Assembly (NCBI GenBank): GCA_020510985.1
Contig: CM035846.1
Location: 202,779,081-202,843,080, forward strand
DNA: 64,000 nucleotides
Direction of reading: 5' to 3'
Source: Pholidichthys leucotaenia
Taxonomy: Eukaryota
Below, piece after piece: positions 115 to 48,160 of this stretch. Under the pieces are notes generated by a model. That model saw only the letters and a program-made list of their open reading frames with translations, did not search any database and was not told where the DNA came from. Position 1 is the stretch's first letter; the number at the start of each line of letters is the position of its first letter. Position numbers and translations under genes: made by a program.

Positions 115-893
115 AAGATAAGATAAGCCTTTATTAGTCCCACAATGGGGAAATTCCAGGATTGCAATAGCACAGGGATAGCAACACTCAGAGCAATAAT
201 TTAGAAGATAAGAAAATAAGAGCAGTGAATATGCATATGTACACTTAAATATATAAATATATATACACAGTGCGGAGCATTGCAGCTAGATAGAATAAAC
301 CACATAACCGTCTATTTAGTTACCCCACATAGTATGAATATGTACCCATACATATTGTCACCCTCCGTAGCGACTGATATTGTCCCAGTTGTATACTGGA
401 GGGGACCATTTGTGTAAGTCTGTTGTGTCTTTTGCATTCAATACTATTAGGTCGTCACGTTTTTTTGCTATCTCTGTGTGCAGCCCTGCTTAGGTTATAC
501 AGTCTGACAGCCGTAGGTAGGAAGGACCTGTGAAACCTCTGCCGCGCACCTAGGATGGTGTAGCCTACTGCTAAATGAGCTCCTCAGTGTGTTCAGTATG
601 TCCTGCATAGGGTGGGACTCGGACTCCAGCAGAGATGACAGCTTAGCCACCATCCTTGTCTCTCCTATCTCCTCCACTGGGTCAAGGCGCTGTCCCAGGG
701 CAGAGCTAGCTTTCTTGATTAGTTTGTTCAGTCTCTTCCTATCGGCTGCTGTGATGCCACTGCCCCAGCAGACCACTCCAAAAGTGATGGCTGATGCCAC
801 CACCGAATTGTAGAAGGTCTTCAGGAGCACCCCTTGTACACCAAAAGACCTGAGCCTCCTCGGTAGGAACAGCCTGCGCTGTCCCATCTTGTA
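115..893 (-). mobile_element. CR1/L2-clade LINE ('L2-A') 3' fragment (RT C-terminus + 3'UTR ending in (cttat)n tail read as ataag on +)
   Basis: ORF 495..902(-) is co-linear with C-terminus of ORFs 8449..9093(-) and 19606..20922(+); 3'UTR 115..480 matches 8147..8470, 21400..21560(rc) and 46384..46565. Confidence 0.8.
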
Positions 894-1249
894 ATTACAC
901 AAATGTGCGATGAATTATTTATAATTGGAAATGAAAAGCTCTTTCATTAAACAACTGTCAGTTATTTAAAATTGGAATTAAATATCTAATTTATTAAATA
1001 CATATACAAGTATTGGGGTGGGGATCTTTAGGTGCCTTTTATGATTACGATGCATTTTTTTTCCCCAACATGTAAATATTAGAAAAAGGACTTACTGCAC
1101 TTCATTCCAAAGAAAATGTAGCTGTTGCAGGTAATGGTCAGCTTAAGGACATCAAAATCACAGAGGAAAAGAGTCTGGAGCACACTGTCAGATTCAGTCT
1201 TTATTGGTGCCAAGACAATTTATTTTTTTAAATTTTGTATACTTTTTTA

Positions 1250-10062: not shown

Positions 10063-10387
10063 GTTGCAGCTTGATAGAGGTCTCCAATTTTCATCATAGG
10101 TATACCTCAACTATGAGAGACAAAATGAGGGAAAAAAAATCCAGAAAATCACATTGAAGGATTTTTAATGAATTAATTGGTAAATTCCTTGGTAAAATAA
10201 GTATTTGGTCACCTACAAACAAGCAAGATTTCTGGCTCTCACAGACCTGTAACAACTTCTTTAAGAGGCTCCTCTGTCCTCCACTCGTTACCTGTATTAA
10301 TGGCACCTGTTTTAACTCTTTATCAGTATAAAAAACACCTGTCCACAACCTCAAACATTCAGATTCCAAACTCCACTATGGCCAAGG

Positions 10388-10625
10388 CCAAAGAGCTGTC
10401 AAAGGACACCAGAAACAAAATTGTAGACCTGCACCGGGCTGGGAAGACTGAATCTGCAATAGGTAAGCAGCTTGGTGTGAAGAAATCAACTGTGGGAGCA
10501 ATTATTTGAAAATGGAAAACATACAAGACCACTGATAATCTCCCTCGATCTGGGGCTCCACGCAAGGTCTCACCCCGTGGGGTCAAAATGATCACGAGAA
10601 CGGTGAGCAAAAATCCCAGAACCGG
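10388..10625 (+). pseudogene. Tc1 transposase N-terminal (HTH) part, interrupted by L1 insertion
   Basis: [43 protein letters not shown].. typical Tc1 paired-like N-term. Confidence 0.75.
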
Positions 10626-11579
10626 ACTTCCGGTTATGGCTGCCACGTAAGAAGGACACGTCTCACTCTGCTCTGCTTCTGGAGAAAAAAAATCGGCAAA
10701 TAACTCATTTGGGACAGAACGTATCCCAGCGTTTGAGCGAGGATATGTCGGTGAAGCCTAAGGCTGGAAAACCAAGTAGAGGGAAAAAGCGAGCCGCAGA
10801 AACAGTCCAAATTAACGGACTTTCAGGTCTGTGACGCAGCAGAGAAAGCACCAAATATGGCGAAGGAAGCTAACAATGGCGCGGGAGCTGCGGGAAGCGA
10901 CACAGGTGCGTTGCTGGCGGCTATGAGTTCAATGAGAGCGGACTTTTCCTCTAGATTTGATGGGATTATGGCAGCGTTGGAAGGAATGAGAAAGGAATTG
11001 GGTGACTGTGTGGAACGAATGGCGCAGATGGAGCTTCGTATTTCCAGTGCTGAAGATGAAGTCAATTGTCTCCAATTAAAGGTGCGCACTTTGGGAAAAA
11101 AAAAATAAATGTCTGGAAGAAAACATTCTGGATTTGGAATCCCGGTCGAGACAGAACAACTTGAGGCTGGTGGGTCTACCGGAAGAATCCGAAGGTCAGG
11201 ACCTGTAAAGAACTGAGGTCCACACGAATAGTGGTTTCAACAAAGTTCTCTTTTAAAACTAGGAGCGGGAACATTAACAGGCGGCAACATCAACACATCG
11301 CCATTTTCATCTCATATCACTCGGTGAAGGTCAACTCTGACCTGTGACGTCACCACAGTCTTAAAGGCACAGCACATATAAATATCACATTATATGACAT
11401 CTCCCCCTTTTTTAGCTTTTTTTTTTTTTCAGAACAAAACAATTTTCAATTCAAACATTTTCCATTTCCATTTCACCCTTCCCCACAGCCCATGGTTTAA
11501 TTATTGAACCACATATAACCACACTTATCACAGTGAACACGTGAATTTCTCTCTTTTCATTTTTCATTTTTTTTTTTCT

Positions 11580-12344
11580 CTACAAATCTAGTCTTTGCAC
11601 AGGTTTAATCATTCTACCGGACCGGGTAAACAACAGTCCTTGCTTTGGGTCTGGCGGTTTGACACTGGATTCTGGTAAAATAGTGTCAGCAGCAGCTGCA
11701 GTTTCAGGCTGCTGATCGACAATCTCTGGCTGCAGGTCATTTGGAGCTGAAGAGTGTATCTCTCTGGCTGATTCAGGATCATGTTGCAAGTGACGGCGGT
11801 TGCGTCGCAAAGTTGCTCCCTGGGGTGTTTCAATAAAAAAGGAGCGAGGTGTGCTGCTTTCTCCTGTGACAACAGCGGGTGTTTTCCAGGATTTCTGATG
11901 GTCCAGCTTTGTGAGGACTGAATCTCCTGGCTTCAACGAAGGTAGGGGTTTAGCTCCATGGCGCTGATTGAAGTAGAATGCTTGTTTCTGTTTCTCCATT
12001 GCATCCTTGTTCCTGACGACTTCCAGATCAGGCCATCGGGGCTGAAGATTCACTTCGAGTGTAGGAAGAGTTGTTTTGATCTTTCGACCCATAAGTAGCT
12101 CTGCAGGACTCACGCCTGTGGTGGTGCAGGGCGTTGATCGAAAGCACATGAGGGCGAGCAAAGGATCTTGCTGCTTTAAGATTCTTTTTGCTGTTTGAAC
12201 TCCCCTCTCTGCATGTCCGTTTCCTTGGGGGTTGTGTGGACTTGAGGTGATGTGCAAAAAGTCAAACTCCCTTGCAAACTTTTTAAAATTCTTGGCATGA
12301 GAATTGAGGCCCATTGTCAGATACAACCACATCTGGACAACCAA
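11580..12344 (-). CDS. gypsy integrase core/C-terminal part (254 aa) in -1 frame relative to upstream pol, 62-nt overlap
   Basis: HITSSPHNPQGNGHAERGVQTAKRIL.. integrase DDE core; overlap with 12283..14838 implies a single frameshift. Confidence 0.75.
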   Translation of the reverse strand: MVVQMWLYLTMGLNSHAKNFKKFAREFDFLHITSSPHNPQGNGHAERGVQTAKRILKQQDPLLALMCFRSTPCTTTGVSPAELLMGRKIKTTLPTLEVNLQPRWPDLEVVRNKDAMEKQKQAFYFNQRHGAKPLPSLKPGDSVLTKLDHQKSWKTPAVVTGESSTPRSFFIETPQGATLRRNRRHLQHDPESAREIHSSAPNDLQPEIVDQQPETAAAADTILPESSVKPPDPKQGLLFTRSGRMIKPVQRLDL

Positions 12345-14838
12345 ACCTCGCGAACACTGCCTTCAGCTTTAAGATCATCTGAGAAGCAGTGGTTACTGGC
12401 AGATGAAGTATCTCGAGGAACCGAGAGAAATAGTCTGACACAACAAGGTAGGTGTGCTTGTTATGCTCACACAGGTCAACAGCAAGTCTCTTCCGGGGTC
12501 GATCAGGTAGAGGGGTTGACAAGAGAGGCTCTTTTCGCTGAGCTGGTCTCATCTCACGACACACCTGACAGGACTGGACTTTGCGTTTGATTTCAGATGA
12601 GATGCCAGGCCACCACACAGATGTGCAGGCCCGCTCTCTGCATTTTGTCAGACCTTGATGTCCATCATGTATTCGATCCAAGATGTCTGCTCTGAGCACA
12701 TCCGGAATCAGCATGCGGCTTCCTCTGGTGATAATTCCATCGCATTCAGACAGTTCATTTTTAATGGGAAAATAGTCTCTGATAGCTGCTGGGACATTGC
12801 CTATGTATTCTGGCCATCCTGACTTGATGTACCACAACACCAACTGTAGGTTACAGTCAGCTGCTGTAGCAGTCTTTATGGTGTCTATTTTCCTTAGATA
12901 GTTAAACATGCCCAGGACACGCTTGAGGTCATGCACGTTCTGTGGTGGAGGGAGCCCGCGGATTGCCTTGACTTTATCAGGGTCGGGTCTCACGCCTGAT
13001 TTGTCAATTTCTTGGCCCAAGAAGTGAAGCTTGTTTTGTCTAAACTTACATTTTTCTCTGTTCAGTTTAAGTCCGGCTGACTCGATCCTTTCCAGTACCT
13101 TGCTGAGACGCTGGTCGTGCTGTTCAGGAGTGTCGCCGTACACCAGTATGTCATCCATGTAGATAGCCACGCCTTCCAGGCCGTTGAGGGTTTCTGTCAT
13201 TTTGCGCTGAAAAATTTCAGGAGCGCTTGTGATCCCAAATGGAAGACGTTTGAATGCATATCTCCCAAAGGGTGTGATAAAGGTTGTTAATTTACTGCTT
13301 TCTGGATGGAGAGGAATCTGCCAAAACCCGGAGGCAGCATCCAATGATGTGAATGTGGTTGCTCCACTAAGTTTTGCAGTGATTTCCTCTGCAGTAGGGA
13401 GAACATACCTCTCTCTTCGTACAGCTTCATTTAACCTCTTTAAATCGACACAGATCCGCACTTTTCCATTTTTCCTTGGGACTGGCACCATTGGCGCGCA
13501 CCAATCTGTAGGATCAATCACAGCTTCAATCACATTATTATCCTCCATACGCTGCAATTCCTCTTTAACCTTCTGCAAAAGTGGCAAAGGTACACGACGG
13601 GCAGTGTGCACTGTGTATGGCTGAGCATTCTCTTTTAACAGGATTTTAACTGGTTCTGTTTTAAGTGTTCCATGTTCACCAAATGCTTTGTGTACTTCTT
13701 CAACACGCTTCACAAGCCCCATCGACATTGCTGTATCTCTGCCCAGCAAATTGTTTGCATTATTGCCACTGATGACATACACAGGAAAAGTATATGGTTT
13801 TTCTTTGTATTCTGTGAAGGCTTGAAATTTTCCTATACAGTCCAACTGACCACCCGGGCTGCACAGTGTGACATTAGATGGCTCTAATTCCTTCTTAGGA
13901 ACTAGTTCGTTAAATGTCTTTTGTCCCATAATGTTTGTATCTGCACCCGTATCAATTTTAAAATTGACTGGTGTTGTTCCAATTGTAAGCTGTATGGTCC
14001 ATGGGTCATCATTTCTGTCTGTTTTTATGACTGCGCCCAAAAAAAATGGTGTCTGGGAAACTGTCTCTTCAGTGACTTCTCTGACTGATTTACTGTGACA
14101 TTTCTTTTCCCAGTGACCCACCTTTTTACACTTGTTGCATGTTGACTTCATGGCTGGGCACTTTTCAGGATCTCTGTGTTTTAATTTTCCACATCTTCCA
14201 CACCATGAGTCTTTTTGCTCTCCACTTTTTCCTTTCCTTGGTTTAAATGGAGATCTTCCTCTGCCTGCTGCTTTTTCCTGGATCTCCTGCACCGTGGCGT
14301 GTGCCTCCCCCTGCTGGTGAACCTGGAGGACAACCTCCTCGTACTGGCGAACTGTTTGAATGGTTTGGGCAAGCGTTAGATCAGCCATCATCTGCAGTTT
14401 ACGTGACAGCTCTTTATCAAGGATGCCCACAACAATTCGGTCACGGATATGTTCATCTCTCTTTACACCAAAGTCACAGTGTTCTGACATCTCAAAAAGG
14501 GCTCTGATAAACATTTCCACTTTCTCACCGGGCCGCTGCAGCCTCTGGTGAAAACAAGCGCGCTCATGGATCACGTTCCGTTTGGGACAGAAGTACTCGT
14601 CGTATTTTCCTAACACAACGTCAAACTTCTTTTGATCCGCTTCCTCAGTAAATGAGAATGATTTCAAGATGTTTTCAGCTTCGGGGCCCATGGCGTAAAT
14701 CAGTGAACTGACCTGAATTTCGCCGTCCTCTTTATTCAGTTTTGTAGCCATCCGGAAACGCAGAAAGCGCTCTTTCCAGCCCGCCCATTCATTTGGACGA
14801 TGAAAAGGAAAACTTTCCGGGGGATTAAACTTGGCCAT
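12283..14838 (-). CDS. gypsy Gag-Pol polyprotein (851 aa: CCHC knuckle, D-T/S-G protease, RT YxDD, RNaseH, integrase HHCC N-term)
   Basis: ORF content: CGRCGKLKHRDPEKC, IDTGADTN, YMDDILVYG, integrase zinc finger HDGHQGLTKCRERACTSVWW. Confidence 0.85.
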   Translation of the reverse strand: MAKFNPPESFPFHRPNEWAGWKERFLRFRMATKLNKEDGEIQVSSLIYAMGPEAENILKSFSFTEEADQKKFDVVLGKYDEYFCPKRNVIHERACFHQRLQRPGEKVEMFIRALFEMSEHCDFGVKRDEHIRDRIVVGILDKELSRKLQMMADLTLAQTIQTVRQYEEVVLQVHQQGEAHATVQEIQEKAAGRGRSPFKPRKGKSGEQKDSWCGRCGKLKHRDPEKCPAMKSTCNKCKKVGHWEKKCHSKSVREVTEETVSQTPFFLGAVIKTDRNDDPWTIQLTIGTTPVNFKIDTGADTNIMGQKTFNELVPKKELEPSNVTLCSPGGQLDCIGKFQAFTEYKEKPYTFPVYVISGNNANNLLGRDTAMSMGLVKRVEEVHKAFGEHGTLKTEPVKILLKENAQPYTVHTARRVPLPLLQKVKEELQRMEDNNVIEAVIDPTDWCAPMVPVPRKNGKVRICVDLKRLNEAVRRERYVLPTAEEITAKLSGATTFTSLDAASGFWQIPLHPESSKLTTFITPFGRYAFKRLPFGITSAPEIFQRKMTETLNGLEGVAIYMDDILVYGDTPEQHDQRLSKVLERIESAGLKLNREKCKFRQNKLHFLGQEIDKSGVRPDPDKVKAIRGLPPPQNVHDLKRVLGMFNYLRKIDTIKTATAADCNLQLVLWYIKSGWPEYIGNVPAAIRDYFPIKNELSECDGIITRGSRMLIPDVLRADILDRIHDGHQGLTKCRERACTSVWWPGISSEIKRKVQSCQVCREMRPAQRKEPLLSTPLPDRPRKRLAVDLCEHNKHTYLVVSDYFSRFLEILHLPVTTASQMILKLKAVFARFGCPDVVVSDNGPQFSCQEF

Positions 14839-17800
14839 CTTACTGAAGCAGAGCGTCCGTCAAGCACTTCTGACACCATGTAAAGAACTGAGGTCCACAC
14901 GAATAGTGGTTTCAACAAAGTTCTCTTTTAAAACTAGGAGCGGGAACATTAACAGGCGGCAACATCAACACATCGCCATTTTCATCTCATATCACTCGGT
15001 GAAGGTCAACTCTGACCTGTGACGTCACCACAGTCTTAAAGGCACAGCACATATAAATATCACATTATATGACAGGACCCGTGTTCCTTTCTGGAAAAGT
15101 GGATTCCGGAGGCGCTGGGCAGTGCGGAGCTGCGGCCGGCGGTGGTTTTGGAGGGCGCGCATCGTATTGGCCCACGGAGAGATAAGGGACCACCGAGGAC
15201 CTTAATTATGAAGTTTGTCAGCAACAGAGACAGGATGAAGATCTTCAACGCAGCACGAGCTAAAGGAGAGATTAAACACCAGGATCAGCAGGTGCGGTTC
15301 TACCCAGATTGGGCCACAGGAATCCAACAATTGAGGAAGCAGTATGATCCCGTACGTAAGGAGCTGCGCAACCTTGGGATTCGTCATGGTGTAATCTATC
15401 CTGCGAGACTGCTGACCACGTATGGGGGCAGAACCCACATCTTCAAGACCCCAGAGGAGGCGCAGGAGTTTATCAAGAAGATCCAAGAAGAAGAGACTGG
15501 TGGGAGCTAAGCATAAACAAAATATAAGGTAGAATATTTAAGCATTTGCACAGGCATCTGACTGACTTGAAGCAAATAGCAAGTTTACAAAATATAGATT
15601 GCATTATATAATTAAAAAAAAAAAACTATGATGTACAAAGTTGCTAAAAATTTTGGAGTTAAGTTGGAAAACTACAGAGGAGAGTTAATGTTACGTCATT
15701 AAAAGCAGTAGAGTTAGGGTGATTGGGAGGATGAAGGAGTGGCTTAGGCTGATCCTCGTGGATGTGGAGCAGTCGATGGCTATATCGGGAGACGGAATTT
15801 TTCTTTTGATTTTGGGGGGTTTGCCACAAGTGTGGGAAGGGGGAATTTGTTTGTGTGTAGTTTGTAGGATGAATGTTCAACCACTCATTTTTTTGCTTCT
15901 CTGTATGAGCATGTTTACACTGCAAGGTAATCCCAAACTCCCTATTGATCATAAACCAAAGCGTTAATCTTAATTTAACTTCATGGAATTGCAGAGGTCT
16001 ACAAAATTTAAAAAAACTTAAACAAGTTATGAATAAAATAAAAGACATGGGTTCAAAAATTGTGTTTTTACAAGAAACTCATCTAATAGAGGAGGATGCA
16101 AAAAGAATTAGGAGTAGATGGCAAGGAAGTGTTTTCACCTCATCATTTTCATCCCGAGCCAGGGGAGTTATGACTCTCATACATAAATCAGTCCCTTTTC
16201 AAGTGAAAAATGTAATTGGAGACAAATTTGGAAGATATGTAATCATTCAAGGATCTTTGCTATTAGAAAATAGCAAAGATCCTATATGGTGAACCTATAT
16301 GGTCCCAATACAGATGATCAAAAGTTCTTTGCTAATTTATTTCTTATCTTATCATCACTTACAGGGCAACATATAATAGCAGGGGATTTTAATTGTACAT
16401 TGAATCCCGGTATAGATAGATCAACAGGACTGGACTGTACGCACAATGGATGTAGGATGACCATTAATCATTTTATGAAAGAATTGAGATTGCTAGATAT
16501 ATGGAGAGAAATGAAACCACAAGTCAAAGCCTACTCTTGTTATTCCAGTACCTACAAGACATTCTCACGTATTGATTATTTTTTTATTTCCACAGAATTA
16601 AGGTCCAAGATTCAAAACTGCTTTTATGATAACATCGTGATCTCTGATCATGCACCCTGCTGTATTTAGTATATGTAGATAAGAAATTGACAAAGGAATC
16701 AGGTAGATGGCAATTTCAGCATAAATGGCTTCAGGATGAGGAATTTGTCAAGTACATAGAAAAACAGATGAGTTCTTTGATATCAATACTACACAAACAT
16801 CAGCATGTGTAAAGTGGGAGGCTTTCAAAGCTTTTATTAGGGGACATATTATTAGTTATACATGTTCAAAATCTAAGAAGACTCGAGAGGAGAGAGCCCA
16901 ATTGGAACATAAAATAAAAAATCTTCAGGAAAAAGTGTATGCAGGAAGTGATCCAAGGTTGGAGAATGAATTACTGATTTTGAGAGCTGAATACGACAAA
17001 AAATCAGCGAATAGAGCTGCCTCGAGTCTTCTAAGATTGAAACAATCTTTTTATGAACAAGGTGAAAAATCAGGAAAATTATTGGCATGGCAGATTAAAC
17101 AATTAGAAATTAAAACACCAATTACCAGTATTATAAGTAACGGACAGGTAGTTATAGATCCTTTAGAAATTAACAGAGCCTTTAGAGATTACTATGAAAA
17201 ATTATATACCAAAAATGAATCTGATTTAACAAAACTAAATGGGTTTTTGAACGAACTATCTATACCTTGTATTCCAAATGAAAACAGGGAGATATTGGAG
17301 TCTAAAATTAGTCAAGAAGAAGTTGGGCTAGCCATTGATAATATGAAATCAGGAAAAAGTGCAGGACCAGATGGTCTTCCAGTTGACTTTTATAAAAAAT
17401 TTAAGAATAAATTAATAAAACCTTTTTTGGAAATGGTTTTAGAAGCATTTCAAAATAATAATTTACCATCATACATGAATAATGCCTTAATTATACTGTT
17501 GCCAAAACCAGGTAAGCCCTCTAATAAATGTGAAAATATGAGACCAATAAGCCTATTAAATGCCGACCTTAAGATAATCTGTGAAATTTTAGCAAGACGA
17601 ATACAAGAAATTTTACCAAATGTTATTAATCGAGATCAGAATGGCTTTATAAAGGGAAGACAAGGCTTCCATAATGTAAGAAGACTATTTAATATTATTT
17701 ATTTTAATAAAGAAGCACCGGATACAGCTGTCCTATCACTGGACGCCGAAAAGGCCTTTGATAGAGTCGAATGGCCCTTTCTTTTTGAAGTCTTACAAAG

Positions 17801-19039
17801 GTTTGGACTTGGAAATAATTTCATAAAATGGGTTCAGATAATATACAATAATGCTACAGCAGAAATCCTAACAAATAACAATATTTCAAAATCAATAAAA
17901 ATCAATAGAGGATGTCGACAAGGCTGTCCACTTTCACCTTTACTGTTTACTATGGCAATTGAACCTTTAGCGATGGCGATACGTTTACATTCACAAATAT
18001 ATGGAATTAAAGTTGGACCAACAGAACATAAAATCTCCCTGTACGCCGATGACATAATTTTGTTTATGTCGAATCTAAAAAAATCAATTCCGACCTTGTT
18101 GAATTTAATAAAGAATTTTGGGGAAATATCAGGATATAAAATAAATAAAACTAAATCTTCAATATTAATGCTAAATGAGACCCAGAGAAATTACCCAGAC
18201 CCTGAGGTAAATCAATTCAACGTTGTAAATCAGTTTAAATATTTAGGAATCCAAATTGTGCCTAAGCTAGAATCAGTCGCCAGTGTCAACTATGAAGCCT
18301 TAATGACAGATATCAATGAGTCAATTCAGAGATGGATGTCACTACCAATGTCGATGATCGGGAGAATCAATATACTTAAAAGTAATATTTTACCTAAAAT
18401 ACTTTATTTCAATACATTCCCTTACCACCACCTTTAGATTTATTCTCAAGAATTAAAAAAAAGTTAGTGGAATTTATATGGAACAACAGGAGGGCTAGAT
18501 TACGTCTGTCTTTATTATATTTACCATTTGATCGTGGAGGTCTGAAATGTCCAAATTTTATGTTGTATTATTGGTCGGCACAACTGAGGTCTATGACATA
18601 TTATTTTTCATTAAATGATCTCCCTCACTGGACTGAAATGGAATCATACAATTTACCTTTACCTCTTCCCATATTCATATACTCAGATTCGGCAAAAAAA
18701 TTACAAAAACAAGTTAAAAATCCATTTGTAAAGCATATGATCAAAATATGGTGTGAAGCTAAAAATTATTTAAAAGAACCACAGTTATTGTCACCATTTT
18801 GCCCAATATGGGGTAATCAATATTTTAAACCAGGAAGAGCGGACGCTGTATTTAAAGTATGGAATTCAAAAGGGATTCAAAAGATTCAAGATTTATATTT
18901 GCCATGTGCAGATAACATAACTCTCTAAAGCACTCTAAAGGACTGTTTTGAAGCCACCGCCTAGAAGCAGCTCTGCGATCCACATGGTGAGGACATCGAT
19001 GGCCTCATTCACACCTTCACGGGCTACCTCAGCTTCTGT

Positions 19040-20922
19040 GTGGACAAATCCGTTCCCACCAAGACCATACGGCGTCACTCAAACAACAAACACTGGATCA
19101 ACCCTGAGATAAAAACACTTCTGAGAGAGAAGAAGAGGATCTTCAGGTCGGGGAACAGGGAGATGCTGAAGTCCGTACAGAGGGAGCTGAGGAGAAAGAT
19201 CAGAGAAGGCAAGGACAGCTTCAGGAAGAAGATGGAGGACAAGCTGCAACAGAGCGACATCAGCGGGGTCTGGAGAAACCTCAAAACCATCTCGGGGCTC
19301 CAGAATACCTCCCCCCAGGCCACGGGGGGCAGGGAGTGGGCGAACAACCTGAATCTATTTTACAATAGATTTGACCAACCGCCCTCCCCCCTGTCTGCAC
19401 AACAACCACTGCTGCCTCTAAAGAAATCAAGTCCTGCTGCCCACTCCCCACTCCACCAACACCCCCCCACTCCCAACACACAGCCCCCCATCCTGACCCT
19501 GACCGAGACCCAGGTGAGGACGGAGCTGAGGAAGATCAAAGCGAGGAAGGCGCCGGGACCGGACGGCATCAGCGCAAAGCTCCTCAAGTCCTGTGCAGAC
19601 CAGCTGTGTGGGATTGTGACGTACAGTATATCTTCAACATGAGCCTGAAACTGGGGAGGGTACCACAGCTGTGGAAAACATCTTGTGTGGTACCTGTACC
19701 AAAGACTTCCCACCCCAAAGACCTGAACAGCTACAGACCGGTGGCCTTGACGTCCCACTTGATGAAGACCCTGGAGAGACTGCTCCTTGCTCACCTCCGC
19801 CCCCTGGTGGAACCAGCGATGGATCCACTCCAGTTCGCCTACCAGCATGGCATTGGGGTGGAGGATGCGGTGATCTTCCTCCTTCACCGTTCTCTGTCCC
19901 ACCTGGAGAAGCCCGGGAATATGGTGAGGATCATGTTCTTTGACTTCTCCAGTGCTTTCAACACCATCCAACCGATGATCCTGAAGGACAAGCTGCTGCG
20001 AGCAGGGGTGGACCAGCACCTGTCATCATGGATCCTGGACTACCTCACGAACCGGCCTCAGTTTGTGAGAACCCGGGACTGTGTGTCCGACACGATCATC
20101 AGTAGCACGGGGGCCCCCCAGGGAACGGTGCTGGCTCCCTTCCTGTTCACTCTTTATACTGCAGACTTCTCATACAACACAACACACTGCCATCTACAGA
20201 AGTTCTCTGATGACTCTGCGATCGTTGGCCTCATCTCCAATGGAGATGAAGCTGAGTACAGAGGGCTTATCCAGGACTTCGTGGACTGGTGCCATCGGAA
20301 CTGCCTCCAGATCAACGCGAGGAAAACTAAGGAGCTGGTGGTGGACTGCTGCAGGCATGGGCAGCCCCTCACAGCACCAGTAAATATACAGGGAACAGAC
20401 ATCGAGATGGTGACATCCTATAAGTACCTGGGTGTTCATCTGAACAATAAACTAGACTGGTCACACAATACTGACGCACTCTACAAGAAGGGACAGCGCA
20501 GGCTGTTCCTGCTGAGGAGACTCAGGTCTTTTGGTGTACAAGGGGCGCTGCTGAAGTCATTCTATGACACGGTGGTGGCATCAGCCATCACTTTTGGAGT
20601 GGTCTGCTGGGGCAGTGGCATTACTGCAGCCGATAGGAAGAGACTGAACAAACTGATTAAGAAAGCTAGCTCTGTCCTGGGGCAGCGCCTTGATCCGATG
20701 GAGGAGATAGGAGAGAGAAGGACGGTGGCTAAACTGTCATCTCTGCTGGAGTCCGAGTTCCACCCTATGCGGGACATACTGGATGCACTGAGGAGCTCAT
20801 TTAGCAGCAGACTACATCATCCCAGGTGCACAACCGAGAGGTTTCGTAGGTCCTTCCTACCAACGGCTGTCAGACTGTACAACCTAAGCAGGGCTGCTCG
20901 CAGAGATAGCAAAAAGACGTAA
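19040..20922 (+). pseudogene. L2-A ORF2 (post-endonuclease linker + RT + C-terminal domain), one frameshift at ~19610-19640
   Basis: KHWINPEIKTLLREKKRIFRSGN..., RT motifs PGPDGI / FFDFSSAFNTIQP / QGTVLAPFLF / FSDDSAIV. Confidence 0.85.
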
Positions 20923-21089
20923 CAAACTAATAGTTTTTTGACTGCAAAAGATGCAATAGACTTACACAATGGTCCCCTCCGGCATACAACTAGGAACATA
21001 CCGGTCGCTATGGAGGGTGAGAATATGTATGGGCACATAATCATACCATGTAGGATAACTAAGTAGACGGTTATGCTGTTTCATCCCAT

Positions 21090-21410
21090 CTAGCAACAAT
21101 GCTCTGCACTGTGTGTGTTTATATATTTACATATTTATTCCATCTAGCTACAATGCTCCGCACTGTGTTTTTATATATCTACATATTATTCCATCTAGCT
21201 ACATTGCTCCGCACTGTGTGTGTTTATATACTTGCATATTTATTCCACCTAGCTGCAATGCTCCGTACTGTGGGTGTTTATATATTTACATATTTATTCC
21301 ATCTAGCTACAATGCTCTGCACTGTGTGTTCATATACTCATATATTTATTCCATCCAGCTACAATGCTCTGCACTGTGTGTCTGTGTGTGTGTGTGTATA
21401 TATTTATTTT
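21090..21410. repeat. Minisatellite: ~5.5 tandem copies of a ~60-bp unit (tattccatctagctacaatgctc[ct]gcactgtgtgtgtttatatatttacatat) followed by (gt)n, inside L2-A 3'UTR
   Basis: Direct reading; other L2-A copies (220..300, 8240..8300, 46540..46575) contain only one unit. Confidence 0.8.
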
Positions 21411-22631
21411 ATAGTAATATGTACATATGTATATTAGCCGCTCTTGCTTGCTTGTTTTTTTCTTGCCTTCTGATTGTTGCTCTGAGTGTTGCTATCCCTG
21501 TGCTGTTGCAATCCTGGAATTTCCCCGTTGTGGGACTAATAAAGGCTTATCTTATCTTATAATGTCTTTTGAAGAGCTGAGGGTCAAATTTAATCTTAAT
21601 AGAACACATTTCTTTAAATATCTTCAACTTAGAAACTTTATTCGATCAAATCAAAATAAAGCTCTCACTCGACCTATTTATTCATCCTTGGAAAAAATGT
21701 TGATCAAAGATAGTAAAAGAAAGGGTATTATTTCAGAGTTTTATAACTCATTGACACTATCCTCAAGTGAAAATTCACAGAAAAGATTAAACTACTGGAA
21801 AGAAGATCTGCAAATTGAAATTTCAGAGGAACAATGGGAATTGGCTTGTACAGAAGCCCAAACCAAATCAATAAATGTACGTCTTAAATTGATACATTTC
21901 AAATGGTTAATGCGGATGTATGTTACACCGGAGGAGTTAAATAGATATAACAAAAATATACCAGATACATGCACAAAATGCATGGAAAGTAAAGGAACCC
22001 TATTTCATTGTGTATGGGAATGTAGAATAATAAGAATGTTTTGGGAAGAGGTGAGGGTAACAATTGAAAAAATAATCTCAAAACAAATCATTTTGAATCC
22101 TAAACTGTTTTTGTTGGGTCTGTACCCAGAAAAGCATAACTTTAATAAAAGTGAAAGAACATTCATAGACCTCAGTTTGCTTCATGCCAAAAAATGTATT
22201 GCACTACTGTGGAAAAAGACTCATAGACCAGATGTGACTCAGTGGTTAAGACAGATGTTAACAAACCTTCCATTAGAAAGAGTAACATATATACTGAAAT
22301 CAAAGGAAATTGTGTTTGAGAATATATGGAGACCTTTTATTGATCATGTAAAAAATTTAAACATAACTCTTGAAGAAGAAGGTGAATGATGTGTGTGGAC
22401 CTTGTAAATTCCAAACTGGTGAACATAATATGTATACTTATGTAATGGATTGTCTAGACTAAACAGAGGAGCATTGTTGAAGACTTGATTTTGTTGGTGG
22501 TTGTTGGTGTTTTTAGTGCATTTTTTTTTTTTTGTAGTACTTTAGTGTTAGTGTTTGTTTGTGTCATGTTTGTTTAAAAAAAAAAAGGTTCAATAAAGAT
22601 ATTGTGGGGAAAAAAAAAAAATCCCAGAACC

Positions 22632-23385
22632 ACACGGGGACCTAGTGAATGACCTGCAGTGAGCTGGGACCATAGTAACAAAGGCTACCATCAGTAACGC
22701 ACTACGCCGCCAGGGACTCAAATCCTGCAGTGCCAGACGTGTCCCCCTGCTTAAGCCAGTACATGTCCAGGCCCACCTGAAGTTTGCTTGAGAGCATTTG
22801 GATGATCCAGAAGAGGATTGGGAGAATGTCATTTGGTCAGATGAAACCAAAATAGAACTTTATTGTAAAAACTCAACTTGTTGTGTTTGGAGGAGAAAGA
22901 ACGCCATACCTACTGTGAAGCATGGGGGTGGAAACATCATGCTTTGGGGCTGTTTTTCTGCAAAGGGACCAGGACAACTGATCCGTGTAAAGGAAAGAAT
23001 GAATGGGGCCATGTATCGCGAGATTTTGAGTGAAAACCTCCTTCCATCAGCAAGGGCATTGAAGATGAAACGTGGCTGGGTCTTTCAGCATGACAATGAT
23101 CCCAAACACACTGCCCGGGCAACGAAGGAGTGGCTTTGTAAGAAGCATTTCAAGGTCCTGGAGTGGCCTAGCCAGTCTCCAGATCTCAACCCCATAGAAA
23201 ATCTTTGGAGGGAGTTGAAAGTCCATGTTGCTCAGCGACAGCTCCAAAACATCACTGCTCTAGAGGAGATCTGCATGGAGGAATGGGCCAAAATACCAGC
23301 AACAGTGTGTGAAAACCTTGTGAAGACGTACAGAAAACGTTTGACCTCTGTCATTGCCAACAAAGGGTATATAACAAAGTATTGA
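22632..23385 (+). pseudogene. Tc1 transposase C-terminal DDE part (continuation of 10388..10625)
   Basis: ORF 22798..23385: [10 protein letters not shown]...[14 protein letters not shown]...QHDNDPKHT...[16 protein letters not shown]. Confidence 0.8.
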
Positions 23386-39358: not shown

Positions 39359-40282
39359 GTCAGTGTAGACTTACCATATGATACAGAAATAGCTCAGGCA
39401 TGAATGTATCCTTTAATGATTCCATTCTTTTTACTTTACAATATTGTTTGTTTTTTTTAGACTCTTTTAGGATTACTATTGAGAAACTCCTCAGTGTCAC
39501 TAGCCAAGCTTTAATGCAGGACAGAGACCCCACTTTCATTTTATAGCGCAAATCCTCACTGATTCTAAAAACTGCTTCTCATTTCGCCGTTGTGTAAATC
39601 AGCTCCAGCTCTGGTCAGGAGGACTCGGACGTTCTGTCATGGCATTTAAGAGTCAGGAGGTAAGCTCTTATTGTCTGTTACCAAATGTTAGACTTGGACT
39701 GCCCAATGCATCTGTGACAATGGATAACTATATCAGTTAGTCAGTAAATACTTGAAACATGACATATGTTGACCCCACATGATCACGTGGTGTCTTTCGT
39801 GACATGTTTGATATCATTTGGAGAGAGACGCGAGCAACACATTTATAGGAAAAGAAGTTCTGTTTGCAAGTGATTAATGTTTTTTTAAATGTGGTAATTC
39901 ACTAAAAGGCTCTGCTTTATTCCTCTTCAGCAATGTCATTTTTGTGACGGGGGTAAAAAGTTCAGTGGCAGATTGTTCTGTGCTCATATTGGTCAGCCTC
40001 ACAGAAGTGATGGAACCATGATTAAAACAAATGTTAACCTGCCTTTTTCACTGCATTAGAATTACACCATACTGTAGATACAGTGGGGGAAATAATGATT
40101 TGATCCCTGCTGAATTTGTAAGTTTGCCCATTACAGAGTAATGAACAGTCCAGAATTTTTATGGTAGGTTTATTTTAACAGGGATACAGAAGGGGACTTC
40201 CGGTTATGGCTGCCACGTAGGACGGACGTGTCTCGCTCTGCTCTGCTCCTGGAGAAAAAAAATCGGCAAATAACTCTCTCAT

Positions 40283-41209
40283 TTGGGACAGAACGTATCC
40301 CAGCATTTGGGCGAGGATATGTCGGCGAAGCCTAAGGCTGGAAAACCAGGAAAAGGAAAAAGCGAGCCGCCGAAACAGTCCAAATTAACGGACTTTCAGG
40401 TCTGTGACGCAGCAAACAAAACTCCATATATGGCGGAGGAGGCTGGCAACGGTGCGATATCTGCGGGGAATGGCGCAGATGCGCTGATGGCTGCCATGAG
40501 TTCAATGAGAGCGGACTTTTCCTCTAGATTTGATGGGATTATGACAGCGTTGGAAGGAATAAGAAAGGAATTGGGTGACTGTGTAGAACGAACGGCGCAG
40601 ATGGAGCTCCGTCTCGCTAGTGCTGAAGATGACGTCACCCGTCTTCAATTAAAGGTGCGCACTTTGGAAAAAAAAAATAAATCTCTGGAAGATAATATTT
40701 TGGATTTGGAATCTCGGTCGAGACAGAATAATTTGAGGCTGGTGGGTCTTCCAGAGGAATCAGAAGGTCGGGACGTATGTTCCTTTCTGGAAAAGTGGAT
40801 TCCGGAGGTGCTGGGCAGCGAGGAGTTGCAATCAGCAGTGGTTCTGGAAAAAGCACATCGTATTGGCCCACGGAGAGATAAGGGACCGCCGAGGACCTTA
40901 ATTATGAAGTTTCTTAGCAACAGAGACAGGATGAAGATCTTCAACGCTGCACGTGCTAAAGGAGAGATTAAACAGCAGGACCAGCAGGTGCGGTTCTACC
41001 CAGATTTGGCCACAGGAATCCAGCAATTGAGGAAGCAGTTTGATCCCATACGTAAGGAGCTGCGCAACCTTGGGATTCGTCATGGTGTAATCTATCCTGC
41101 GAGACTGCTGACCACGTATGAGGGCAGAACCCACATCTTCAAGACCCCAGAGGAGGCGCAGGAGTTCATCAAGAAGATCAAAGAAGAAGAAGAGACTGGT
41201 GGGAGCTAA
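40283..41209 (+). CDS. L1 ORF1p (308 aa, intact)
   Basis: Uninterrupted ORF; coiled-coil region + C-terminal nucleic-acid-binding-like domain. Confidence 0.8.
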   Translation: MGQNVSQHLGEDMSAKPKAGKPGKGKSEPPKQSKLTDFQVCDAANKTPYMAEEAGNGAISAGNGADALMAAMSSMRADFSSRFDGIMTALEGIRKELGDCVERTAQMELRLASAEDDVTRLQLKVRTLEKKNKSLEDNILDLESRSRQNNLRLVGLPEESEGRDVCSFLEKWIPEVLGSEELQSAVVLEKAHRIGPRRDKGPPRTLIMKFLSNRDRMKIFNAARAKGEIKQQDQQVRFYPDLATGIQQLRKQFDPIRKELRNLGIRHGVIYPARLLTTYEGRTHIFKTPEEAQEFIKKIKEEEETGGS

Positions 41210-41661
41210 GCATGAACAAAATATAAGGTAGAATAATTAAGCATTTGCACAGGCATCTGACTGACTTGAAGTAAATAGTAAGTTTACAAAATATAGATTG
41301 TGTTATATATTAAAAAAACAAAACAAACAAACAAAAAAAAACTGATGTACAAAGTTGTTAAAAATTTTGGAGTTAAGTTGGAAAACTACAGAGGAGAGTT
41401 AATGTTACGTCATTAAAAGCAGTAGAGTTAGGGTGATTGGGAGGATGAAGAAGGAGTGGCTTAGGCTGTTCCCCGTGGATGTGGAACAGTCGATGGCTAT
41501 ATCGGGAGACAGAATTTTTCTTTTGATTTTGGGGGGTTTGCCACAAGTGTGGGAAGGGGAAATTTGTTTGTGTGTAGTTTGTAGGATGAATGTTCAACCA
41601 CTCATGTTTTTGCTTCTCTGTATGAGCATGTTTACACTGCAAGGTAATCCCAAACTCTCTA

Positions 41662-44600
41662 TTGATCATGGACCAAAGTGTTAATCTTAATTTAACTTCA
41701 TGGAATTGCAGAGGTCTACAAAATTTAAAAAAACTTAAACAAGTTATGAATAAAATAAAGGACATGGGTTCAAGAATTGTGTTTTTACAAGAAACTCATC
41801 TGATAGAGGAGGATGTTAAAAGAATTAGGAGTAGATGGCAGGGAAGTGTATTCACCTCTTCATTTTCATCCCGAGCCAGGGGAGTTATGACTCTCATACA
41901 TAAATCAGTTCCTTTTCAAGTGAAAAATGTAATTGGAGACAAATTTGGAAGATATGTAATCATTCAAGGTTCTTTGCTATTAGAAAATATAAATCTTGTG
42001 AACTTATATGGTCCCAATATAGATGATCAGAAGTTCTTTGCTAATTTATTTCTCATCTTATCATCACTTACAGGGCAACATATAATAGCAGGGGATTTTA
42101 ATTGTACATTGAATCCAGGTGTGGATAGATCAACAGGACTGGATTGTACGCACATTGGATGTAGGATGACTATTAATCATTTTATGAAAGAATTGAGATT
42201 GTTAGATATATGGAGAGAAATGAAACCACAAGTTAAAGCCTATTCTTGTTATTCCAGTACCTACAAGACATTCTCACGTATTGATTATTTTTTGATTTCC
42301 ACAGAATTAAGGTCCAAGATTCAAAACTGCTTTTATGATAACATCGTGATCTCTGATCATGCACCCTGTTGTCTAATATATGTAGATAAAAAATTGACAA
42401 AGGAATCAGGTAGATGGCAATTTCAGCATAAATGGCTTCAGGATGAGGAATTTGTCAAGTATATAGAAAAACAGATAGACGAGTTCTTTGACATCAATAC
42501 TACACAAACATCAGCATGTGTAAAGTGGGAGGCTTTCAAAGCTTTTATTAGGGGACATATTATTAGTTATACAGGATCAAAATCTAAGAAGACTCGAGAG
42601 GAGAGAGCTAAATTGGAACATAAAATAAAAAGTCTTCAGGAAAAAGTGTATGCAGGAAGTGACCCAAGGTTGGAGAATGAATTACTGATTTTGAGAGCTG
42701 AATACGACAAAAAATCAGCGAATAGAGCTGCCTCGAGTCTTCTAAGATTGAAACAATCTTTTTATGAACAAGGTGAAAAATCAGGAAAATTATTAGCATG
42801 GCAGATTAAACAATTGGAAATTAAAACACCAATTACCAGTATTATAAGTAATGGACAGGTAGTTATAGATCCTTTAGAAATTAATAGAGCCTTTAGAGAT
42901 TACTATGAAAAATTATATGATACCAAAAATGAACCTGATTTAACAAAACTAAATGGGTTTTTGAACGAACTATCTATACCGTGTATTCCAAATGAAAATA
43001 GGGAGATATTGGAGTCTAAAATTAGTCAAGAAGAAGTTGGGCTAGCCATTGATAATATGAAATCAGGAAAAAGTGCAGGACCAGATGGTCTTCCAGTTGA
43101 CCTTTATAAAAAATTTAAGAATAAATTAATAAAACCTTTTTTGGAAATGGTTTTAGAAGCATTTCAAAATAATAATTTACCATCATACATAAATAATGCC
43201 TTAATTATACTGCTGCCAAAACCAGGTAAGCCCTCTAATAAATGTGAAAATATGAGACCAATAAGCCTATTAAACGCCGACCTTAAGATAATCTGTAAAA
43301 TTTTAGCAAGACGAATACAAGAAATTTTACCAAATATTATTAATCGAGATCAGAATGGCTTTATAAAGGGTAGACAAGGCTTCCATAATGTAAGAAGACT
43401 ATTTAATATTATTTATTTTAATAAAGAAGCACCGGATACAGCTCTCCTATCATTGGACGCCGAAAAGGCCTTTGATAGAGTTGAATGGCCCTTTCTTTTT
43501 GAAGTCCTACAAAGGTTTGGACTTGGAAATAACTTCATAAAATGGGTTCAAATAATATACAATAATGCTACAGCAGAAATCCTAACAAATAACAATATTT
43601 CAAAACCAATAAAAATCAATAGAGGATGTCGACAAGGCTGTCCACTTTCACCTTTACTGTTTACTATGGCAATTGAACCTTTAGCGATAGCGATACGTTT
43701 ACATTCACAAATATATGGAATTAAAGTTGGACCAACAGAACATAAAATCTCCCTGTACGCCGATGACATAATTTTGTTTATGTCGAATCTAAAAAAATCA
43801 ATTCCAACCTTGTTGAATTTAATAAAGAATTTTGGGGAAATATCAGGATATAAAATAAATAAAACTAAATCTTCAATATTTAATGCTAAATGAGACCCAG
43901 AGAAATTACCCAGCCCCTGAGGTAAATCAATTCAATGTTGTAAATCAGTTTAAATATTTAGGAATCCAAATTATGCCTAAGCTAGAATCAGTCGCCAGTG
44001 TCAACTATGAAGCCTTAATGTCAGATATCAATGAGTTAACTCAGAGATGGATGTCACTACCAATGTCGATGATCGGGAGAATCAATATACTTAAAAGTAA
44101 TATTTTACCTAAAATACTTTATTTATTTCAATACATTCCCTTATCACCACCTTTAGATCTATTCTCAAGAATAAAAAAAAAAGTTAGTGGAATTTATATG
44201 GAACAACAGGAGGGCTAGATTACGTTTGTCTTTATTATATTTACCATTTGATCGTGGAGGTCTGAAATGTCCAAATTTTATGTTGTATTATTGGTCGGCA
44301 CAACTGAGGTCTATGACATATTATTTTTCATCAAATGATCTCCCTCACTGGACTGAAATGGAATCATACAATTTACCTTTACCTCTTCCCATATTCATAT
44401 ACTCAGATTCGGCAAAAAAATTACAAAAACAAGTTAAAAATCCATTTGTAAAGCATATGATCAAAATATGGTGTGAAGCTAAAAACTATTTAAAAGAACC
44501 ACAGTTATTGTCACAATTTAGTCCAATATGGGGTAATCAATATTTTAAACCAGGGAGAGCGGACGCTGTATTTAAAGTATGGAATTTAAAAGGGATACAA

Positions 44601-45467
44601 AAGATTCAGGATTTAGATTTGCCATGTGCAGACAACATAATGTCTTTTGAAGAGCTGAGGATCAAATTTAATCTCAATAGAACACATTTTTTTAAATATC
44701 TTCAACTTAGAAACTTTATTCGATCAAATCAAAATAAAGCTCTCACTCGACCTATTTATTCATCCTTGGAAAAAATGATGATGAAAGATAGTAAAAGAAA
44801 GGGTATTATTTCAGAGTTTTATAACTCATTGACACAATCCTCAAGTGAAAATTCACTGAAAAGATTAAACTACTGGAAAGAAGATCTGCAAATTGAAATT
44901 TCAGAGGAACAATGGGAATTGGCTTGTACAGAAGCTCAAACCAAATCAATAAATGTACGCCTTAAATTGATACATTTCAAATGGTTAATGCGGATGTATG
45001 TTACACCGGAGGAGTTAAATAGATATAACAAAAATATACCAGATACATGCACAAAATGCATGGAAAGTAAAGGAACCCTATTTCATTGTTTATGGGAATG
45101 TAGATTAATAAGAATGTTTTGGGAAGAGGTGAGGGTAACAATTGAAAAAATAATCTCAAAACAAATCATACTGAATCCTAAACTGTTTTTGTTGGGTCTG
45201 TACCCAGAAAAGCATAATTTTAATAAAAGTGAAAGAACATTCATAGACCTCAGTTTGCTTAATGCCAAAAAATGTATTGCACTATTATGGAAAAAGACTC
45301 ATAGACCAGATGTGACTCAGTGGTTAAGACAGATGTTAACAAACCTTCCATTAGAAAGAATAACATATATACTGAAATCAAAGGAAATTGTGTTTGAGAA
45401 TATATGGAGACCTTTTATTGATTATGTAAAAAATTTAAACATAACTCTTGAAGAAGAAGGTGAATGA
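41662..45467 (+). pseudogene. L1 ORF2 (APE endonuclease + RT + C-terminal domain, ~1270 codons) with two single-base frameshifts in homopolymer runs (~43885 and ~44190)
   Basis: Three consecutive overlapping ORFs 41662..43893, 43883..44218, 44187..45467. Confidence 0.85.
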
Positions 45468-46383
45468 TGTGTGTGGACCTTGTAAATTCCAAACTGGTGA
45501 ACATATGTATACTTATGTATTGGATTGTCTAGACTAAACAGAGGAGCATTGTTGAAGACTTGATTTTGTTGGTGGTTGTTGGTGTTTTTAGTGCATTTTT
45601 TTTTTGTAGTACTTTAGTGTTAGTGTTTGATTGTTTGTATCATGTTTGTTAAAAAAAAAAAAAGGTTCAATAAAGATATTGTGGAAAAAAAAAAAACAGG
45701 GATACAGAAGATCATAAAAGATCCAGGAAAAAAAAAACAACAAAACATTAAATAAGGGCTATAAATTGATTTGTATTTGATTTTGTGAAATAAGTATTCG
45801 ATCCTCAAGCAAAATGTGACTTAGTACTTGGTGGAGAAACCCTTCTTGGCAAGCACAGAGGTCAGATGTTTCTTGTAGCTGGTCACAGGTTTTGCACACG
45901 CCAGGAGGGATTTGGTCCACTTGTCTTCAGACACACTCCAAATCCTGAAGGTTTTCAGGCTGATCCCTCACCTTTCTCAGAATCATCCTTACCCCACGAA
46001 GTGCAATCTTGCATGAAGCTCCAGAACGAGGGCGATGGGCTGTTGTATTTTTTCCATTTTCAAATTATCACGCCAACAGCGGTCTCTTTCTCACCAAGCT
46101 TCTTGCTGGTGGTCTTGTAGCCCATTCCAACCTTGTGCTGGTCTACAATCTTGTCTCTGACATCCTTTGACAGCTCTTTGGTCTTACCCATGGTGGTGGA
46201 GAAGTTTGAATGGAAGAGACTGATTCTGTGACAGGAGTCTTTTATACATAAAATGAGCTGAGATCATTAGTACTTTTCTAAAGGGACAGGACTAATTTAT
46301 GTGCCTCATGGGCACATAACTGATCTGTGTTGGTCAGAATTCTTGCTGGTTGGTAGCGGATCAAGTACTTATTTCACTCAATC

Positions 46384-46575
46384 AAATGCAAATCAAATTT
46401 ATAAGATAAGATAAGATAAGCCTTTATTAGTCCCACAATGGGGAAATTCCAGGATTGCAACAGCACAGGGATAGCAACACTCAGAGCAACAATCAGAAGG
46501 CAAGAAAAAACATCTAGTAAACATATGTCCATATTACTATAAATGTATATATATAGACACACAGTGCAGAGCATT
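46384..46575 (-). mobile_element. L2-A 3'-terminal ~190 bp (last minisatellite unit to (cttat)3 tail)
   Basis: Reverse complement matches 21370..21560. Confidence 0.8.
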
Positions 46576-46613
46576 ATGGTTGGTTGGTGAATGTGCAGCA
46601 GAAAGTCTAAGCT

Positions 46614-46989
46614 CTCTCTCCGCGGATGCAGCGGGCCAGCTGGAAGTCTTTGGGCATGATGGTGACCCCCTTAGCGAAGAAGAGACCACCAGGTGGGCCT
46701 CGCTGGTCTCCTGCAGAGCCATGACGGCGAAGCTCAGGAAACGCAGGACGGTCTTGAAGTCCTGAGCGATCTCCCTCACCAGGCGCTGGACGGGCAGCTT
46801 ACGGATGAGCAGCTCCGTGGATTTCTGGTAGCGACGGATCTCTCTCAGAGCCACGGGCCTGTGACGGCGAGGCCTCTTCACTCTGCCGGTGGCCGGAGCG
46901 CCTCTCCGAGCAGCCCTGGTGGCTAGCTGTCTCCTGGGGGGCTTCTTCCTCCAGTAGATTTTACGGGCGGTCTGCTTGGTTCTTGCCAT
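46614..46989 (-). pseudogene. Histone H3-like gene, disrupted: 1-nt deletion near codon ~100, 24-nt in-frame deletion in the alpha3 region, diverged N-tail (S10I, K27R, K36-region changes)
   Basis: ORF 46537..46989 begins [57 protein letters not shown]; canonical C-terminus ..[20 protein letters not shown] present in -1 frame ending at 46614. Confidence 0.8.
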
Positions 46990-47254
46990 CGCTCTTTATT
47001 ATTCTGTCTTATATTTCTTGCACGCCGCCTAAACTCCAGCCCGGCACCCACGTCGTTTTTGCTACAGCTCCCGGTATGTCGAGTTTCCCATTAGCACCGG
47101 GCGGCGGCCAAGTGCTAGCTAGCACTAGCTCCTCCCCGCTGTAACGTCTCCCGCTGCAAACCGTGGCTCCGTCCGCCGACCCGGGAGACCCCCGGGGCGA
47201 TCCGTGCGTCCGTGACATATATACAGAGTGAAAGGTGTAGAAAGAAGAAGGAAG

Positions 47255-47289
<35 letters not shown>

Positions 47290-47400
47290 TGTTGCAACGG
47301 GCAGCCGACTCGTGTGGCGCCACCGGTCCAGCGGAACCGGAAAATATAGCCTATATTTTCTACAATATTTTCTGTTATATTTTACTTTATAGCCTATATT
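46990..47400 (-). mobile_element. L2-A 5'UTR-like segment (homolog of 23880..24640) with internal poly(A)26 at 47258..47285
   Basis: Shared blocks ..ccacgtcgttt..gctgtaacgt..cgtggctccgtc..gggcgatccgtg..gtgtggcgcc.. Confidence 0.65.
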
Positions 47401-48160
47401 TAATGTTTTTTCTGAATTTTTTTGTTGATATTCGATCTCTCTCTATTAAAATAAACCTACCATGAAAATTATGAACTGTTCATTTCCTTGTGAGGGGATA
47501 AAGGTTCAAATTCAGCAGGGGATCAAATAATTACTCCCCCCACTGTTTACACATAACAGCACATATGTCTGAACAAAGAAACAACAATTTTTGCATTAGA
47601 GACAAATGTGATTACAGTAATTTGGTACACCCAATATGTACAGGCTACACAAAATGGAATGACTGATTCTTGTTTCCGTCTCATTTTCTTTCAACATCCC
47701 GTCTTGATGGAATAAGGAATCATATGATCTGAGTTTGGTGTAACTTATCTATATTACCGAAGCTGAGAGCTGAATCTTTTTCAGTCAACCCCCCCCCCCA
47801 CCACCACCACCAAAGATTAGCCGTTTTTCCCTAAATACATTTTGTTTTATCTTAAAAAAAAGAGCCATTATCTTGTGATAACACAATTTTATTTTGTCAT
47901 CTCAAAAATACAGTGAAGAAAAAGATAGCAATGACCTTTTAGTTTCTGTACAGGAAATCGTTTTCATCCAACTTTTTTGGACCGCGCATGGTTGTGAGAT
48001 TGAACAAAGTAAACACACAAAATAAGACTATCAAATAAGTTAATAATTTTAAAAATGTTAAAATCCAGACTGAAAGGTACAACTTCAAGATTTCTCTGTA
48101 TGAATGTTTTGGCCTAATTCCTACCAATTTCTTGAGCAGTTGTTTTTGTATTTTTAAAAG

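Follow-up and report, generated by a model that had tools for sequence, protein, structure and literature searches.

The element and its insertion site

The window, a stretch of 64,000 nucleotides of Pholidichthys leucotaenia DNA, contains a full-length L1 element of about 5.5 kb on the + strand at 40193-45696, the element proper being about 5504 bp long. A second L1 of the same lineage, here called copy #1, lies upstream of it, and two related L1 contigs from public read assemblies, L001 and L002, with 82% and 73% nucleotide identity respectively, provide further comparisons. A search of the literature with the accessions of the Logan runs gave nothing. The features are as follows.

10625..22621, +: copy #1, another subfamily within the same L1 lineage, by alignment (L1 parts 10625-11202, 15082-18920 and 21559-22621)
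40177..40192, +: 5' TSD AACAGGGATACAGAAG, directly preceded by TTTT; identical at 16/16 positions to 45695-45710 and present as a single copy in the paralogous Tc1 TIR
40193..40318, +: 5' UTR, 126 bp, beginning (G)GGACTTCCGGTTATGGCTGCCACGTA; 5' terminus common to copy #1 (10625) and L001
40319..41209, +: ORF1, intact, 296 aa, coiled coil, RRM and CTD (Type II ORF1p); no stop or frameshift
41210..41667, +: 458-bp spacer between the ORFs, including an A-rich tract; identity to copy #1 91-98%, conservation relative to L001 poor
41668..43893, +: ORF2 segment 1 (frame 1), APE endonuclease and RT through YADD, with a premature stop from frameshift 1; by Pfam and alignment to human ORF2p
43877..43879, +: frameshift 1 (+1), TTT against TT in copy #1, L001 and L002, by alignment
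43880..44173, +: ORF2 segment 2 (frame 2), distal part of RT, from the ORF listing; frame-corrected junctions match intact homologues
44164..44173, +: frameshift 2 (+1), A10 against T+A8 or similar in relatives, by alignment
44174..45467, +: ORF2 segment 3 (frame 0), C-terminal part with Cys-His motif CTKCMESKGTLFHCLWEC and stop codon; human ORF2p match to residue 1248
45468..45696, +: 3' UTR, 229 bp, AATAAA at 45670-45675 and A tail at 45685-45696, read from the sequence
45695..45710, +: 3' TSD, by repeat comparison with the 5' end

The TSD is a perfect 14-bp repeat, CAGGGATACAGAAG, found at 40179-40192 and again at 45697-45710. Its length becomes 16 bp (AACAGGGATACAGAAG) when two A's common to the tail are counted, these first two A's being indistinguishable from tail sequence. 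A perfect 16-bp repeat at precisely the two ends of the element would arise by chance with a probability of about 4^-16 per placement. The initial annotation of a full-length element of 5.5 kb with a perfect 14-bp TSD and a poly(A) tail is borne out, except that its end coordinate, 45709, is one base short of 45710. The tail is short and pure, consisting of 12 A's, of which 10-12 belong to the tail itself. The target reads TTTT/AACAGG, which implies a bottom-strand nick at 5'-TT/AAAA-3', and such a nick fits the preference of the L1 endonuclease. The element thus combines a TSD, a 3' poly(A) tail, an AATAAA signal and a T-rich/A-rich nick site with the absence of LTRs and TIRs, as in target-primed reverse transcription, and its sense strand is A-rich (36% A, 15% C).

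The host of the insertion is the long TIR of a Tc1-like DNA transposon. The opposite Tc1-like TIR (47386-47546) aligns without a break over the insertion point and serves as a proxy for the empty site. Since it runs across the junction with only one copy of the TSD, the element is a true insertion. Rfam and tRNA scans of the window gave no hits, so no SINE partner or structured RNA was found there. The locus as a whole is a nest of transposons.

The 5' end of the element is also complete. It begins GGGACTTCCGGTTATGGC, with one extra G relative to copy #1 and L001, and copy #1 and the independent contig L001 start at the same terminus, (G)GGACTTCCGGTTATGGC. In copy #1, GGACTTCCGGTTATGGC directly follows that copy's own TSD, while in L001 it directly follows an unrelated flank. 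One 5' terminus in three independent insertions is expected if each is a complete copy of an RNA whose start site is fixed. The 126-bp 5' UTR is presumably the internal promoter; it contains ACTTCCGG, which may be ETS-like, and ATGGC(G/T)GC, which may be YY1-like.

Copy #1 is flanked by a TSD of its own, (A)nTCCCAGAACC, contains several indels and is interrupted by two nested TEs. Its ORF2 carries at least five indels, including ones of 2, 4 and 8 bp that are not homopolymer errors, and its A tail is as short as that of the element. The three known copies lie at three different target sequences. An origin of the element by segmental duplication of copy #1 was rejected, because the TSDs and flanks of the two differ and their synonymous divergence is 7-30%.

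Coding regions, family identity and the two frameshifts

ORF1 starts at an ATG, at 40319, that is conserved in copy #1 and L001. It had been reported as uninterrupted and 308 aa long; it is indeed uninterrupted, while its length is 296 aa from this ATG, and 308 codons are obtained only by counting from an upstream TTG at 40283. The protein has the coiled coil, RRM and CTD that define a Type II ORF1p. Over residues 90-284 it matches human L1 ORF1p (2ykp) with an E value of 1.8e-15. It also matches 2w7a and 2jrb, two fragments of L1 ORF1p solved separately, with E values of 0.0012 and 0.029, respectively. The match to Pfam Transposase_22 is weak (E 0.003, 18.3 bits) and lies below the cut-off of 22.4.

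ORF2 extends from the ATG at 41668 to the stop codon ending at 45467, with the frame order 1>2>0. In the ORF listing, frame 1 is open to 43893, frame 2 over 43883-44218 and frame 0 over 44187-45467. Deletion of one base at each of the two frameshift sites yields an ORF2 of 1265 codons with no internal stop, and across both junctions (KSSILMLNE... and SRIKKKLVEFIWNNRRARLRLSLL) the frame-corrected ORF2p follows the pattern of intact homologues. The corrected protein has an N-terminal APE endonuclease, a central RT and a C-terminal Cys-His pattern, CTKC...H....C. It is collinear with human L1 ORF2p (8uw3) from end to end, residues 7-1248 aligning with residues 8-1249 at an E value of 2.8e-178, and Pfam recognizes Exo_endo_phos (2.1e-9) and RVT_1 (2.6e-39) in ORF2. 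The residues that are catalytic in human ORF2p lie in motifs that are conserved here, namely SWN, QETH, GDFN, SRIDY and SDH in the endonuclease and YADD, the counterpart of human FADD, in the RT.

Judged by these matches to human ORF2p and ORF1p, the element, previously called L1-like, is a non-LTR retrotransposon of the teleost L1 clade with a Type II ORF1. All of its named protein relatives are from teleosts, among them Oryzias, Poecilia, Nothobranchius, Oreochromis, Cirrhinus and Labeo, and some of the ORF1 relatives are labelled as L1 RRM-domain or LINE-1-type transposase proteins. The best identities in the protein collection searched are 83% (partial) and 68% (full-length) for ORF2p and 64% for ORF1p. 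An exact-sequence look-up with ORF1p returned no gene on record, a metagenome scan with the C-terminal part of ORF2 returned no relative, and no further family copies or near-identical sequences were found in the collections searched. As nothing closer is present in the protein collection searched, the element is an undescribed family or species representative.

The initial annotation described ORF2 as broken only by two single-base length differences relative to copy #1, in A/T runs around 43885 and 44190. Two such differences are what is found, at 43877-43879 and 44164-44173; the earlier positions mark the overlaps of the ORFs. The second site is an A10 run, produced by a synonymous ATT>ATA change (T>A) that lengthened the A run and then by one extra A. 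The first run is only 3 nt long and is hardly a homopolymer. Copy #1, L001 and L002 all lack the two insertions, which are therefore derived and private to the 40193-45696 copy. Programmed frameshifting was also considered and was rejected, since neither +1 base occurs in these three relatives, whose ORFs are continuous there.

As read, the first stop codon of ORF2 is at 43891-43893, codon 742, so that a product of 741 aa would end after YADD and the rest of ORF2p would be missing. Since ORF2p is truncated after the RT active site, the copy would not be autonomous. Ivancevic et al. 2016 (PMC5203782) define an L1 as potentially active when its ORF2 is intact, measures at least 3 kb, is bounded by start and stop codons, encodes an RT domain and is free of inactivating mutations. 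The ORF2 described here lies in three frames with two +1 insertions and falls outside this definition as read, which leaves the earlier suggestion of potential retrotransposition competence unsupported.

Age of the insertion and status of the frameshifts

The two window copies differ with a dS of 0.07-0.3 and an omega of 0.17. Polarization of their differences used L001, an outgroup only 82% identical, so that some calls are wrong and 32 of the 106 ORF2 differences are unpolarized. The lineage of the element shows 33 synonymous and 10 non-synonymous changes in ORF2, against a neutral expectation of 76.5% non-synonymous. The synonymous excess and the low omega indicate that most of the divergence between the two copies arose in replicating, selected lineages. 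If all non-synonymous changes are taken as post-insertional, a binomial bound scaled for the unpolarized sites allows at most about 17-23 neutral substitutions after insertion. Decay since insertion would then be about 0.5% or less (also put at 0.1-0.5%), a figure drawn from two copies rather than from a family consensus. This estimate is also consistent with the lack of any stop codon along the 4.7 kb that code for protein (ORF2 frame-corrected), with the perfect TSD and with the 440-bp spacer comparison, in which 3 derived changes fall in the element and 14 in copy #1. Across 92 full-length homologues, 132 alignment columns reach at least 95% conservation, and the corrected ORF2p departs at only two of them (S810 and H1102). 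Two departures is the median for full-length homologues, and both residues are common to copy #1; they are family traits, and no private damage is seen at conserved sites.

The element had been called apparently young, and purifying selection on its lineage, the lack of stops and the perfect TSD uphold that description. An old, long-dead copy could look intact through gene conversion with another copy or by lying in a slowly mutating region. CpG loss is not asymmetric (11 sites in the element and 17 in copy #1) and thus does not mark the element as the younger of the two, and the A tail is only 10-12 nt long, both of which would agree with such a history. It is nevertheless very improbable, because 5.4% of random ORF2 substitutions create a stop and none is present in the coding sequence, the lineage-specific changes show a strong synonymous excess, and the TSD, at 16 bp, and the A tail have remained perfect and pure. 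The equally short tail of copy #1 indicates, moreover, that short tails are a trait of the family. These sequence comparisons indicate that the family was active recently, and it may be active still.

Such limited decay also bears on the frameshifts. Both are single-base changes in mononucleotide runs, A10 is a classic site of assembly error, and the rest of the element looks functional, from the 5' end, ORF1 and the poly(A) signal to the catalytic motifs and conserved columns of ORF2p. If both +1 insertions were sequencing or assembly artefacts in A/T runs, the copy would be intact and retrotransposition-competent. This is an unlikely explanation, since two sites must both be wrong, consensus errors are rare at TT>TTT, and a count of two indels matches the estimated level of neutral substitution. 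The indels of 2-8 bp in copy #1 show, in addition, that genuine indels are common in this genome when set against substitutions. The bolder proposal, that both frameshifts are assembly errors and that the locus holds an intact, currently competent master copy of an undescribed teleost L1 family with an unusually compact, 126-bp ETS/YY1-like promoter, is slightly less likely again. Since a 3-nt T run is an unlikely place for an error and two indels fit the estimated decay, we consider both frameshifts to be probable real mutations.

The contrast between an intact ORF1 and a broken ORF2 might alternatively reflect a domesticated host gene, with ORF1 held intact by selection while ORF2 decays. 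With so little decay, however, an intact ORF of 0.9 kb is expected by chance, the surroundings are a transposon nest, and no identical or near-identical annotated ORF1 protein was found, the best being 64%. Domestication is therefore very unlikely.

The locus is best read, with a probability of roughly 0.8, as a recent full-length insertion of a teleost L1-clade element that has since been inactivated. By analogy with L1 biology, an active progenitor would have been transcribed from an internal promoter in the short 5' UTR, and its ORF1p (coiled coil-RRM-CTD) and ORF2p (endonuclease and RT) would have bound their own polyadenylated RNA. The endonuclease would then have nicked the TT/AAAA site inside the Tc1-like transposon, and target-primed reverse transcription would have copied the whole RNA. 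The sequence itself shows the 14-16-bp TSD, the short A tail and the complete 5' end. Change after insertion would amount to about 0.5% or less, including two real +1 slippage insertions that cut ORF2p after the RT active site.

Comparison with known L1 systems

The initial annotation placed the element in a lineage where active L1s are sparsely characterized. To our knowledge, teleost L1s have rarely been assayed functionally, and to that extent the remark is justified. Young, active fish lineages have already been well documented, however. Fish are described as having multiple young L1 lineages that are active at the same time and present in low copy number (Duvernell 2004 and Furano 2004, as cited by PMC3381678 and PMC5203782), and each non-LTR family in fish as having few, very similar, recent copies, full-length ones being rare (PMC3381678, citing Duvernell 2004 and Furano 2004). 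Fish have mammalian-like L1s together with diverse L1/Tx1 groups, and non-mammalian animals combine a high proportion of potentially active L1s with low copy numbers (PMC5203782).

The element is a textbook instance of this young, low-copy fish pattern. The only new point, as far as sequence similarity can tell, is a family without a close relative in the collections searched. Its use lies mainly in annotation, in that it gives a teleost L1 family a frame-corrected ORF2p and one reference copy that is nearly intact and has well-defined boundaries. The evidence of purifying selection within the window indicates, in addition, that the lineage was recently active. If this copy or a sibling were intact, it would provide a fish L1 for retrotransposition assays, a useful but unsurprising resource given the known young teleost lineages.

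Human and mouse LINE-1 (L1HS and L1Md) have a collinear ORF2p, the same order of ORF1p domains, a bicistronic organization, an A-rich sense strand and a T-rich/A-rich nick site, all of which are found in the fish element. Human L1 has a 5' UTR of about 900 bp and an inter-ORF spacer of about 63 bp. The 5' UTR of the fish element, at 126 bp, is much shorter, its spacer is 458 bp long and its A tail is very short. The Tx1 group of the L1 superfamily also combines an APE endonuclease with an RT in ORF2. Tx1-type elements are target-specific and have other types of ORF1, whereas in the fish element ORF1 is of Type II and the three known copies occupy three different targets. The Tx1 group is also present in fish and amphibians (PMC5203782).

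The closest resemblance is to the teleost L1 lineages, the mammalian-like fish L1s of Duvernell et al. 2004 and Furano et al. 2004, which are about 5.5 kb long and have a Type II ORF1, an ORF2 of about 1265 aa that combines APE and RT with a Cys-His tail, a poly(A) tail and a TSD. Young copies and co-existing subfamilies, represented in the window by copy #1 and the element itself (copy #2), are common to both. The copy at 40193-45696 differs from these lineages in its broken ORF2.

Host elements and nested insertions

All three L1 copies of the lineage, namely copy #2 (the full-length element under study), copy #1 (a member of a different subfamily) and the copy on the related Logan contig L001, sit within Tc1-like DNA transposons:

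Window ~40079-47546: Tc1-like host of L1 copy #2
Window 10319-10624 with 22622-23385: Tc1-like host of L1 copy #1
L001:1-102: Tc1-like host of the L001 L1 copy

These insertions probably just reflect the abundance of Tc1-like elements and their AT-rich target sites. The transposon that hosts copy #2 has, between its inverted repeats (two in number), a decayed ORF, which is histone H3-like at its start and divergent after it, and is either a pseudogene or a captured sequence:

46537-46989, minus strand: decayed histone H3-like ORF (Pfam Histone, 2.9e-19)

Copy #1 is itself interrupted by two retrotransposons, the second of which is inserted in its ORF2 and belongs to a non-LTR family with two further fragments in the window:

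11204-15074, minus strand: LTR retrotransposon within L1 copy #1
18921-21558, plus strand: non-LTR retrotransposon unrelated to the L1 copies (RVT_1, 2e-27)
8449-10110, minus strand: related fragment of the same non-LTR family
495-902, minus strand: related fragment of the same non-LTR family

The LTR retrotransposon is a very recent insertion, since its 196-bp LTRs are 100% identical to each other, its ends are TG..CA and it has a 5-bp TSD, GGACC. Its gag-pol carries RVT_1 and integrase; a single frameshift near 12283-12344, within the core of the integrase and outside any homopolymer, breaks it in two. The ALKBH8_N match in the non-LTR element at 18921-21558 is spurious.

The 5′ terminus and the ORF2 start

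The first ~30 nt of the L1 element, GGACTTCCGGTTATGGC[T/G]GCCACGTA, are conserved across subfamilies, which are only ~70% identical in the rest of the 5′ UTR:

Copy #2, 40193-40225: conserved 5′ terminus
Copy #1, 10625-10655: conserved 5′ terminus
L001, ~103-135: conserved 5′ terminus

This stretch contains an exact ACTTCCGG, which we take to be an ETS-type core, and a presumably YY1-like ATGGCGGC. It is a candidate minimal internal promoter.

The start codon of ORF2 is ATG in copy #2 (41668-41670) and ATA in copy #1 (15957 region); conservation of the ATG in L001 is not clear. Either ORF2 initiation in the L1 family of copy #2 may be independent of the AUG at 41668-41670, or copy #1 may have lost this codon.

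Synonymous divergence along the element

Between copy #2 (40319-45467) and copy #1, dS falls steeply from 5′ to 3′, from 0.31 in the N-terminal half of ORF1 to 0.18 in its C-terminal half, and from 0.16 in the endonuclease of ORF2 to 0.068 in the remainder. This gradient suggests that the 5′ part is mosaic or recombinant, or that turnover is faster at the 5′ end, as has been described for mammalian L1.
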